This document shows, in pieces, positions 57,001 to 60,000 of a stretch of 64,000 nucleotides of DNA. The stretch comes from Pseudomonadota bacterium. GTDB taxonomy: Bacteria > Pseudomonadota > Gammaproteobacteria > Xanthomonadales > Rhodanobacteraceae. Where the stretch lies: positions 37,000 to 100,999 of the forward strand of contig JAFEFO010000040.1 in NCBI GenBank assembly GCA_018240565.1, given 5' to 3'. Position numbers: made by a program. The stretch's first letter is position 1. Every line of letters starts with the position of its first letter.

Positions 57001-60000
57001 CGAGCTGATCGAGGCTGCGTGCCTGCTCGCGCTGGAACTGGCGGTAGCGCGCCAGGTCCTGCGCGGTGGGATGCACGACGATCTCGCCGGAGCCACCGTC
57101 GATCAGCAGCAGGTCTTCGTCGGTCAACCGTTCGAGCGCCTCGCGTGCGCCGACCACCATCGGCAGGCGCAGGCTGCGGGCGAGGATCGCGCTGTGCGAG
57201 AGCGAGCTGCCGCCGGTGGTGACGAGGCCGAGTACGCCGTGTTCGGTCAGGTGCGCGACCTCGGCTGGCGCGATCGTGTCGCCGACGAGCAAGGTGCCCA
57301 CGCGCGAGGCGATCTGGCGCTCGGCCGGCGTGGTGTCGCGGTTGAGCACGGCCTGCACGCGGCCGATGACATGGTCGATGTCCTCGCGCCGGCTGCGGAA
57401 ATACGGATCGTCGATTGCTTCGAATGCCGCCGCAAGACGATCACGTTGCATCTTCAGCGCGGTGCCGGCGCGGTAATGGCCCTTGCGGATCAGCGCGTAC
57501 AGGCCTTCGGTGAGTTCGGGATCGTCAAGAATGAGGTTATGCGCGTCGATGAATTCGCCGACCTCGCGCGCCAGCGCGCCATGCAGCTTCTCGCGCAGCG
57601 TCTTGAGTTCCTCGCGCGCCTGTTGCAAGGCCAGGCGCAGGCGTTCGACTTCGGCTTCGATCTCGCTTTCCGCGAGGGGGCGTTCATCGACGCGAATCTG
57701 GCTCGGTTGCACCAGCCGCGCGCGCCCCAGCGCCATGCCGCGCGCGGCACCGGTTCCGGCGATGACGAAGCGGCTACTCATGCACCCACACTTCCGTCAT
57801 TCCGGCAGGGACTGCCGGAAGCCAGATTGCATGGATGCCTCGAAAACTTTGCTGCATGAGATCTCACAACCTCACTTTTGTTGGCATACCCGTATGCTGC
57901 CGTCCATGGCTTCTGGATTCCGGCAGTCCCTGCCGGAATGACGAGTCAAAATCACGCCCCCTCATCGAACTTGCGCGCGAACAACTCCGCCATCGCCGCC
58001 AGCGCGGCGGATTCGTCCGGCCCATCGGTGCGCAAGGTGATGGTCTGGCCGACGCCGGCGGCGAGCATCATCACGCCCATGATGCTTTTCGCATTGATCT
58101 CACGGCCGCGATGGATCAACGCCGCGTTGCACTTGAAGCCCTGCAGCAGTTGCACGAGTTTCGCCGAGGCGCGCGCGTGCAGGCCGAGTTTGTTGGTGAT
58201 CGTGACGTCCTGTTCAACCATGTTCGACGATTCCCGCGCGGCCGCCATTGGCCGCGGTTTGTGCCAGTTCCGCGAGCGGCTGCTCCGGATAATTGAGCGT
58301 GCGCAACAACATCGGCAGGTTCAATCCGGAAACGCGACGCACGTCGCAGCCCAATTCCGGCAAGCGCTGTGCGACGTTGCTCGGCGTCGCGCCATAGACG
58401 TCGGTGAGGACGAGCACGCCGTCGCCGGAATCGAGCCGGCGGGCGCGCGCCGCGGCGTCGCGCAACGCGGCCTCGACGTCGCTGCCGGGCGGAATCGCCT
58501 GCGCTTCCAACGTTTGCGGAACACGCCCCAGGATGTGTCGCGCCGTGGCGATCAGTGCGTCGCCCATCGCCTCGTGCGTGAGTAAAAGTATACCAACACT
58601 CATTCCAACTCCCCAAGCGTCGTCATGCCGGCAGGGTCGAAGCCGCGACAGCGGCTGAGGGGCATCCAGACTGCAAGGATGCCAAGGCACGCCGGCGCAT
58701 TCGCATTGAAAGCATTGCCGTCCATGGCGCCTGGATTCCGGCACTCCATGCCGGAATGACGAGCAAAGAAGTTCATTCCAACTCCCGGTGAAAGGTCAGC
58801 ACCTGTTCGCGCGTGGCGCGGAAGTGCGCGGCAAGCAGTTCGGCCAGGTATACCGAGCGGTGGCGCCCGCCGGTGCAGCCGACGCAGATGGTCACGTACG
58901 AACGATTTTCCGACTCGAAGCGCGGCAGCCAGACACGGAGAAAATCGCGAACCTGCGTGAAATATTCGCCGACCTCGGGCTTGGCCTCGAACCAGGCGCG
59001 CACGGCGGCGTCGCGTCCGGTGAGCGGGCGCAGCGGTGCTTCCCAGTGCGGATTCGGCAGGCAGCGCGCATCGAACACGAAGTCCGCGTCGGCCGGTACA
59101 CCGCGCTTGTACGCGAAGGATTCGAACAGCAGCGACAGCGGCCCGCCGGCCATGCCCAGTTCCGTCGCGATCAGGCGACGCAACTGGTGCACGTTCATCT
59201 CGGACGAATCGACCACGCGCTCGGCGATGGCGACAACGGGCTTGAGCAGCTTGCGTTCGCGTGCGATGGCGTCACCGAGCGAGACGCCTTCGCCGGTCAG
59301 CGGATGACGCCGGCGCGTATCCGAATAGCGCTTGAGCAGCACCTCGTCGCGCGCATCGAGGAATATCAATCGGTATTCGATGCCGCGCTGCGCGAGGCCG
59401 GCCAGGATCGCCGGCAACTGGTTCAGGTCCTGCGGCCGGTTGCGCACGTCGATGCCAACCGCCAGGCGCGGATGCACGCCCGCGCGCATGGCCTCGTCGA
59501 CGAACGCCGGCAGCAGCGCGCCGGGCAGGTTGTCCACGCAGTAATAGTCGAGGTCCTCCAGCGCGCGCAGGGCGATGGTCTTGCCCGAACCCGACATGCC
59601 GCTGACGATGATCAGGCGGGTGGTGGGGAGATTGTCGCTACTGGTAACCATGCCTCACCACGGCGCCTGCCGCTGCATCTGGTGCGCCTGGCGGTCGAGG
59701 AAGGTTTGCGCCGGGTCGATGCCCTTGGTCTTGAGCACGTGGTTGCGCACGGCGGCTTCGACCAGCACGGCGAGGTTGCGACCGGGGGCGACGGGGATGG
59801 TGGTCTGCGGAATCTTGGTGTCGAGGATGTCGCGCCAGCTGTTCGCGCCGTAGATGCGCTCCAGCCCCGATTGCTCGATCGGCTGCTCGCGCGGGAGCAG
59901 GTCCAGATGCACGACCAGGCGCAGGTATTTGGACTGCTTTACGGCCGTCTGGCCGAACATCTCGCGCACGTTGAGGATGCCCAGGCCGCGCACTTCGAGC

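Follow-up and report, generated by a model that had tools for sequence, protein, structure and literature searches.

Overlapping stop and start codons are the commonest gene spacing in prokaryotes, and the question addressed here is how such overlapped, coupled junctions can gain the repeats that are common in bacterial operons. The analysis concerns a 64-kb stretch of a Rhodanobacteraceae genome (assembly GCA_018240565.1, contig JAFEFO010000040.1), called the window, to which all coordinates refer, and within it a 159-bp palindromic element (copy B) that separates rapZ from a gene for a mannose-type phosphotransferase system (PTS) EIIA protein. The closest described repeats are the CGTC-tagged repetitive extragenic palindromic (REP) sequences (Di Nocera, De Gregorio and Rocco 2013, PMC3733652), which consist of an unpaired CGTC, TGTC or CCTC tag, an 8-9 bp stem starting with AT, a loop of 4-5 nt and a 3-nt tail that fits CCA. 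They occur mostly as head-to-head dimers and mainly in Alphaproteobacteria, and their superfamily takes in Neisseria dRS3 and some Rickettsia palindromic elements (RPEs); the survey associated no transposase with them, and the word 'duplication' is absent from that paper (PMC3733652). Copy B is like these repeats in its tag, a 9-bp stem starting with AT, a 5-nt loop, a CCA tail, the inverted dimer arrangement and a position near gene ends. It differs from the published cases in its occurrence in a gammaproteobacterium, a perfect 14-bp flanking duplication, a mini-hairpin nested in the right unit and a conserved one-sided TTCTTTGC extension.

REPINs (Bertels and Rainey 2011, PMC3116915) are likewise composed of two inverted REPs and a spacer that form one hairpin, and are non-autonomous and mostly intergenic. 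They possess a GTAG-type tag, a cognate REP-associated tyrosine transposase (RAYT) and no known target duplication, whereas copy B has a CGTC tag, no known link to a RAYT and the 14-bp duplication. Terminal inverted repeats, as in a classical MITE (miniature inverted-repeat transposable element), are present (17 nt, 58620-58636 and 58746-58762, 88% complementarity), but not the fixed, family-specific target duplication of such elements. Chunjie (2008, Genetics), as described in its title and in reviews, is also a recent palindromic operon insertion with flanking direct repeats and intact neighbours; unlike copy B, it is an A+T-rich MITE of the classical kind, whose inverted repeats measure 21 bp and whose duplication is fixed at 9 bp. 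RPEs (MITE review PMC10969869), which belong to the same broad superfamily (PMC3733652), are tolerated because they are open and in phase, and are translated, as is predicted here. They become part of a host protein, whereas copy B forms a separate open reading frame (ORF) between the rapZ stop and the EIIA start.

Termination-reinitiation coupling at ATGA or TGATG overlaps (-4 or -1 nt) has been described (Huber et al. 2019, PMC6728339; PMC10666635; PMC12548453), and both ends of the ORF over copy B, as well as the ancestral junctions, are -4 overlaps. Known coupling joins two neighbouring genes and collapses once the spacer exceeds ~20-38 nt (PMC10666635), whereas here an unconserved ORF of 13 to ~85 codons would span 40-250 nt of repeat DNA. 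Scanning ribosomes lack an energy source and are halted by a stable structure just past a stop, while elongating ones pass (PMC7518266), and untranslated RNA invites Rho-dependent polarity (review PMC12548453). Like the stop-proximal structures studied by Chemla et al. (2020, PMC7518266), copy B places a stable hairpin ~11 nt past a stop. Such structures or REPs insulate against reinitiation or lower upstream output, whereas a start overlapping the stop would here let an elongating ribosome pass. Neither 'bridging' nor 'relay' is used in the 2025 coupling review (PMC12548453), and a full-text literature search joining translational coupling with repetitive extragenic palindromic sequences returned nothing relevant. 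The parts are known, namely a CGTC-type REP dimer, target duplication and termination-reinitiation coupling; their combination with unconserved, phase-locked ORFs that relay translation (relay ORFs) appears to be undescribed. REPs close to stop codons were reportedly the subject of work by Liang, Rudd and Deutscher in 2015 in Mol Cell.

The junction between rapZ and the EIIA gene (rapZ|EIIA) is composed of the following features, listed in the direction of transcription.

58773-59651, minus strand: rapZ (ORF listing; Pfam PF03668 and PF22740)
58773-58786, minus strand: upstream junction copy GGGAGTTGGAATGA, with the final codons of rapZ (E-L-E), its TGA stop and the relay-ORF ATG overlapping that stop
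58600-58776, minus strand: predicted 58-codon relay ORF (product MNFFARHSGMECRNPGAMDGNAFNANAPACLGILAVWMPLSRCRGFDPAGMTTLGELE), with ATGA overlaps with the rapZ stop and the EIIA start (58603)
58614-58772, minus strand: inserted 159-bp palindromic element (copy B), missing in the closest relatives
58600-58613, minus strand: downstream junction copy, with the Shine-Dalgarno sequence GGGAG, the EIIA ATG (58603-58601) and the relay-ORF TGA overlapping that ATG
58214-58603, minus strand: mannose-type PTS EIIA gene (ORF listing; Pfam PF03610, EIIA-man; comparison of the junction in relatives)

The original prediction had claimed a perfect 14-bp duplication around the element, and this was confirmed: with up to one mismatch allowed, TCATTCCAACTCCC has exactly two sites in the window (58600-58613 and 58773-58786), while matches were obtained in 0 of 100 shuffles. 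The proposed roles of the two copies can be read directly off the minus strand, where the upstream copy contains ..CGG GAG TTG GAA TGA, i.e. the RapZ C-terminus RELE followed by the stop, and the downstream copy contains GGGAG, 5 nt and the EIIA ATG. Measured from start to start, the copies are 173 nt apart (3x58-1, hence 3n-1), and the stop-free frame of 58 codons with ATGA at both ends, which had been translated by hand, agrees with the ORF listing.

In all, 80 rapZ loci were compared, of which the closest (L001-L005, L007, L009 and L010) are Rudaea-like metagenome-assembled genomes with 79-94% RapZ identity. All eight showed the state foreseen for genomes lacking the element, that is, a single cgGGAGCTGGAATGAgcgtcgg with one ATGA overlap in an uninterrupted rapZ|EIIA junction (GGGAGCTGGAATGA), and in BLAST alignments 14 nt of a relative's junction matched either flank of copy B. 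Both window 14-mers carry a T at a site where the Rudaea-like relatives have a C, and this shared, lineage-specific T fits a duplication within this lineage. Since eight relatives possess one uninterrupted junction, the comparison shows copy B, at the level of sequence, as an insertion with a 14-bp target duplication in this lineage only.

Duplicated junctions had been expected to recur at other operon-internal sites, and two further cases were identified in the window.

57952-58221, minus strand: HPr gene (Pfam-confirmed)
57952-57963, minus strand: HPr|ptsI upstream copy GAGGGGGCGTGA, with the HPr C-terminus and stop
57795-57943, no strand assigned: copy C, a symmetric CGTC REP dimer inserted at the HPr|ptsI junction
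57778-57789, minus strand: HPr|ptsI downstream copy GTGGGTGCATGA, with the ptsI ATG
56048-57781, minus strand: ptsI (Pfam-confirmed)
25639-25647, plus strand: mdtB|mdtC upstream copy CGCCATGAA, with the stop of mdtB and the ATG at which a 49-codon relay ORF starts
25664-25769, no strand assigned: palindromic mdtB|mdtC element of an unrelated family (CCTCTCCCGCTGGCGGGAGAGG ... CCCTCTCCCGCCAGCGGGAGAGGG; GGGAGAGG-type)
25785-25793, plus strand: mdtB|mdtC downstream copy CGCCATGAA, with the mdtC ATG at 25789 overlapped by the relay-ORF TGA

In the same Rudaea-like relatives, the HPr and ptsI genes share one 4-nt overlap (gagggtgcATGAgc; single gagggtgcATGA). Copy C is bracketed by gaGGGGGCGTGA and gtGGGTGCATGA, and each of its sides aligns with 10-13 nt of the junction seen in the relatives. 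At the third junction, mdtB and mdtC overlap directly in the sister species L202 (gcgtcATGAatccc), and its alignment with the window gave a duplication of at least 9 nt. The expectation thus held at HPr|ptsI and mdtB|mdtC. Among copies in other settings, no such repeat is present at the 45 complete metagenome dimers listed or at copy D, which has an empty site in the sister species, yet no flanking duplication.

19820-19919 (about), plus strand: copy D, a related CGTC element (stem of 8 bp, loop GAAA), between convergent genes

Altogether, 47 complete dimers were examined, comprising the 45 metagenome copies listed, whose contexts are unassigned, and window copies B and C. Only copy B among them has a long flanking repeat, and few metagenome copies are flanked by genes that are confidently co-directional. 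No target duplication of fixed length was found across this set: copy B has 14 bp and copy C ~10-13 bp, and at copy D there is none. As copy D and the metagenome dimers lack a long flanking repeat, the 14-bp duplication is, on this comparison, not a general property of the repeat family, and long duplications would instead mark those insertions that survive at overlapped junctions.

A spacing of 3n-1 had also been anticipated at other copies, and was found at mdtB|mdtC and not at HPr|ptsI. Two ORFs span inserts in the mdt operon.

25643-25792, plus strand: 49-codon relay ORF over the mdtB|mdtC insert, ATGA-to-ATGA spacing 146 nt (3n-1)
22279-22422, plus strand: 47-codon ORF over copy A, with its ATG 12 nt from where the mdtA stop begins and a TGA overlapping the mdtB ATG

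The ORF over copy A uses the same frame of the element as the 58-codon ORF. At copy A, its sister-species orthologue and an unrelated insert in L207, the ORF terminates on the mdtB ATG, having begun 9-17 nt past the first base of the mdtA stop.

The generality of this arrangement was assessed by locating rapZ and the EIIA, HPr and ptsI genes by homology in the 80 loci and analysing every junction with a spacer of 40-400 nt. A chain was scored as complete when a start codon lay -14 to +20 nt from the upstream stop and its frame was open through to the overlapped downstream start. At the 38 junctions whose downstream start is overlapped by TGA, the frame of that TGA contained 4 stops, as opposed to 22 and 26 in the other two frames (~1650 codons each); at the 20 junctions without a TGA-overlapped start, the three frames contained 9, 10 and 14 stops. 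Complete relay chains were present at 32/38 junctions, where shuffling predicted 12.5 (length kept) or 7.2 (random phase). With one representative per cluster the chains were complete in 24/28 cases (P ~2e-10), and among Rudaea-like representatives in 12/13 (P ~5e-8), both P-values being optimistic, since the spacers of related genomes are not fully independent.

Phase is retained while length varies. All ten rapZ|EIIA spacers (43-196 nt) have a length of 1 mod 3, with an RTG overlapping the rapZ stop in each; those of L011 and L016 differ by one 6-nt indel, and the net length differences of HPr spacers (-42 and +21 nt) are multiples of three. At these two junctions, those spacers of 13-39 nt whose downstream start is TGA-overlapped are likewise in-phase mini-ORFs. 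The relay peptides themselves are unconserved, being unrelated at the same junction in relatives and ranging from 13 to ~85 residues. Stop depletion, phase and unconserved peptides are, as read from these alignments, signatures of selection on the act of translation and not on its product.

The explanation regarded as probable for the whole locus is a junction-duplicating insertion combined with a relay ORF that keeps translation coupled across it. Briefly, a non-autonomous CGTC-REP dimer was copied into the ATGA overlap of rapZ and the EIIA gene, with duplication of 14 bp of the target; the left copy retains the rapZ end and stop and the right copy the EIIA Shine-Dalgarno sequence and ATG, as the comparison shows. 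Given the 3n-1 spacing and an element free of in-frame stops, the ATG of the upstream copy opens the 58-codon ORF that ends on the EIIA start. To judge from the comparative data, a ribosome ending rapZ would reinitiate on the spot, elongate through the ~160-nt hairpin and unwind it, and also keep the spacer RNA covered; the start overlapping the upstream stop would make the post-termination ribosome elongate again before it reaches the hairpin. The ribosome would then terminate on the EIIA ATG and reinitiate there, so that coupling would be kept across an insert otherwise abolishing it. The duplicated Shine-Dalgarno sequence may decay with time, which would be allowed because the relay suffices. 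Insertions at overlapped junctions appear to be tolerated only with a duplicated junction and a spacer translatable in phase. The coupling chain rapZ-ORF-EIIA is supported by strong, though indirect, comparative evidence, and translation of the ORF is predicted.

Several observations weigh against this explanation. Only one perfect duplication exists (copy B), and a tandem duplication followed by insertion would yield an identical sequence. At rapZ|EIIA alone, the chance of the right phase (1/3) together with a stop-free frame (~0.20) is ~0.07 and not significant. The EIIA gene of the window keeps a strong Shine-Dalgarno sequence of its own, making independent initiation possible; its core is predicted to be mostly paired, with or without a ribosome footprint masked at the rapZ stop, in folds that vary with the flanks. 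Finally, the spacing at HPr|ptsI in the window is 174 nt and out of phase, and no single ORF bridges it. There, the TGA frame is open from +9, with a GTG at +87 as the earliest canonical start; a relay of two ORFs at this junction is speculative.

The reason for the selection is one point at which a different reading can be given. Translation of the spacer could have been selected because it protects 100-250 nt of otherwise naked, structured RNA from Rho-dependent polarity or from mRNA decay, and not for a handover of ribosomes. Stop depletion and phase conservation show only that translation matters, and polarity on untranslated RNA is established (PMC12548453). As the sole reason, however, this is rather unlikely: the open frame begins at or beside the upstream stop and ends exactly on the stop overlapping the next start, and older cases have lost the downstream Shine-Dalgarno sequence. 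Exact frame ends and Shine-Dalgarno loss are needed for reinitiation and not for mere cover of the RNA, and thus argue against protection from polarity alone, which remains an alternative or additional selective reason.

The insertion and duplication could also be real and the 58-codon frame incidental, with EIIA initiating at the duplicated Shine-Dalgarno sequence and ATG. The anti-Shine-Dalgarno duplex energy of the EIIA GGGAG in the window is indeed strong (-8.0 kcal/mol), GC-rich repeats are often stop-free (probability of an open frame 0.20 here, right phase 1/3), the insert is too recent for selection to have tested it, and no single chain is present at HPr|ptsI, which also lies in the window. 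Against this, an in-phase open frame occurs at 32/38 comparable junctions where 7-12 are expected, and the unrelated element at mdtB|mdtC is bridged in the same manner. A Shine-Dalgarno sequence is missing from older bridged rapZ|EIIA junctions (-2.5 to +1.9 kcal/mol), a bridged junction of this kind being that of Rudaea sp. 3F27F6 (L020), with a 142-nt insert, and the core of the one in the window is predicted to be mostly base-paired. An incidental frame is therefore considered unlikely. Strong AAGGAG motifs are present at ptsI genes with non-overlapped GTGC starts.

A third alternative concerns the origin of the duplication, and posits that a 14-bp tandem duplication arose first and that a repeat making no duplication then inserted exactly between the copies. 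In its favour, target duplications are not reported for CGTC/REP-type repeats (PMC3733652), none is present at the 45 complete metagenome dimers listed, short spacers (4-34 nt), in part with a repeated ATGA, occur at these junctions in relatives, and the boundary between the copies would be the sole neutral insertion point. The tandem intermediate is, however, seen in no relative, the same coincidence would be required at three junctions, and two events are less parsimonious than one; this origin is judged quite improbable. Unconserved filler lies between the conserved element ends and the repeats (AC on one side, ACGCTTG on the other). The variable duplication lengths (14, 10-13 and at least 9 nt), the filler and the lack of repeats in other settings point to imprecise copy-in filtered by selection. 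They suggest that such copying, e.g. by replication template switching, fits better than a transposase with a fixed staggered cut, which is the weakest step of the explanation. That the 58-residue product is itself a functional small protein, as its ATG start and intact frame might imply, is highly improbable, given that a Pfam search returned no match for it, that its sequence is dictated by the repeat and that, in relatives, the peptides encoded by relay ORFs at this junction are unrelated and have 13 to ~85 residues.

The rapZ|EIIA locus provides a fresh and unambiguous example of one way in which such a junction can gain a repeat, since its 14-bp duplication is perfect and the site is empty in relatives, while other relatives show later stages in which phase is held, the peptide drifts and the Shine-Dalgarno sequence is gone. 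We tentatively propose a general rule for these high-GC gammaproteobacteria, in which repeats would colonise coupled junctions only with a duplicated stop/start and a phase-locked relay ORF whose peptide is irrelevant, and in which the variable duplications would be a first clue to a spread of CGTC repeats by imprecise copy-in. If this is true, many short translated ORFs that annotation pipelines discard are identified, forming a hidden class of translated frames without sequence conservation. Frame-specific stop depletion, together with spacer length locked modulo 3, would then serve as a sequence-only signature of coupling, and the locus would supply a dated insertion event for a repeat superfamily without a known transposase.

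The 159-bp element is predicted to fold as one long hairpin. On the minus strand, its order is AC, the left extension TTCTTTGCT, the left and right REP units with a spacer between them, and ACGCTTG.

58731-58761, minus strand: left CGTC-tagged REP unit, CGTC-ATTCCGGCA-TGGAG-TGCCGGAAT-CCAG (tag, 9-bp stem, 5-nt loop, CCA tail)
58621-58669, plus strand: right REP unit, inverted (CGTCATGCC...GGCATCCAG), its loop replaced by a nested mini-hairpin AGCCGC-GACA-GCGGCT
22291-22407, plus strand: copy A, between mdtA and mdtB, with an orthologous copy in the sister species

By the published definition (PMC3733652), the element is, on its predicted fold, a head-to-head dimer of CGTC-tagged REP units. A stem of 8-9 bp beginning with A-T, a loop of 4-5 nt and a CCA-type tail were found in the left unit and in copy D; the right unit of copy B deviates, with a shortened stem and the nested hairpin in place of a loop. 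Unpaired CGTC tags are located at 58761 (minus strand), 58621 (plus), 57795 (plus) and 57943 (minus), and copy A has TGTC at 22300. The head-to-head arrangement with tags pointing outward at both ends is common to copies A, B and C and to the 45 complete metagenome copies listed. Rfam searches gave sub-threshold microRNA-hairpin matches only, and promoter-like or terminator-like sites were not found.

The mini-hairpin (CCCTCAGCCGCTGTCGCGGCTTCGACC, or variants with compensatory changes) is nested in the right arms of copies A and B (22362-22388 and 58637-58660). It stands alone in the mdtA|mdtB spacer of L207 (2754-2882), and the sister-species orthologue of copy A lacks it. A T-rich, one-sided extension outside the CGTC tag (TTCTTTGCT or TTCTTCTTTTGCT) is shared by two stem/loop types (19809-19830, 22281-22300 and 58762-58776), and in copies B and D it is preceded by AATGAA(C/G); this may reflect microhomology to the target site or belong to the mobile unit.

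In total, four CGTC-family copies (A to D) are contained in the window. Copy A was considered as a fourth duplicated junction and rejected, because it is shared with the sister species and its flanks are too diverged to call a duplication; distant relatives carry TGAtccgcgcATG at its position. A strain-level comparison of sister-species loci revealed no repeat insertion polymorphism. The REP unit is widespread in metagenomes, being present in more than 120 contigs among the matches listed. A BLAST search of the elements against the 80 rapZ loci returned almost no copies beyond the window, and the subfamily appears to be lineage-restricted. Repeats of 8 bp at three metagenome copies flank a larger outer element. 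Many CGTC dimers of metagenome contigs (L147, L148 and L182; also L085, L109 and L119) lie inside such an element with ..CGTTATACACAAG.. terminal inverted repeats and 8-bp direct repeats, and in its sequence organisation it looks like a composite MITE with the REP dimer as cargo.

Spacers with a length of 2 mod 3 (57778-57954 and 22267-22422 in the window; also L014 and L068) show a further feature, in that their TGA-ended open frame is the frame of the upstream gene behind its UGA stop; at window copy C, two in-frame TGAs are 6 nt apart. Low-level read-through of UGA could also carry ribosomes across such inserts. Several relatives (L006, L014, L020, L024, L040 and L077; L011 and L016) contain palindromes at rapZ|EIIA whose arms are heptamers in tandem, (GGGATTC)n...(GAATCCC)n or (GGGGCGA)n...(TCGCCCC)n. 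Heptamer copy number alters the spacer length by 7 nt, and most of these spacers are in phase nonetheless. In Xanthomonas- and Pseudoxanthomonas-like loci (L068, L072, L074-L077 and L079), a conserved CTGTTAACGTTCC without a Shine-Dalgarno sequence is found directly upstream of the EIIA ATG, and GTCGGGTACCCTG is common to Dokdonella-like spacers; both motifs are candidates for internal promoters or for regulatory sites.

The EIIA and HPr genes of the window overlap by 8 nt (ATGGTTGA, 58214-58221), with no insertion there. Where relatives have a spacer at EIIA|HPr, the downstream gene mostly has its own Shine-Dalgarno sequence, and relay ORFs are present in some (spacers of at least 40 nt: L020, L031 and L046). 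Upstream of rapZ, the window contains one further gene of the cluster.

59655-60611, minus strand: hprK (Pfam-confirmed)

In L003 (7611-10034; 90% RapZ identity), ~2.4 kb missing from the window are present between hprK and rapZ, and in the Pseudoxanthomonas loci L076 and L079 an insert of ~590 nt with its own ORF lies between rapZ and the EIIA gene.

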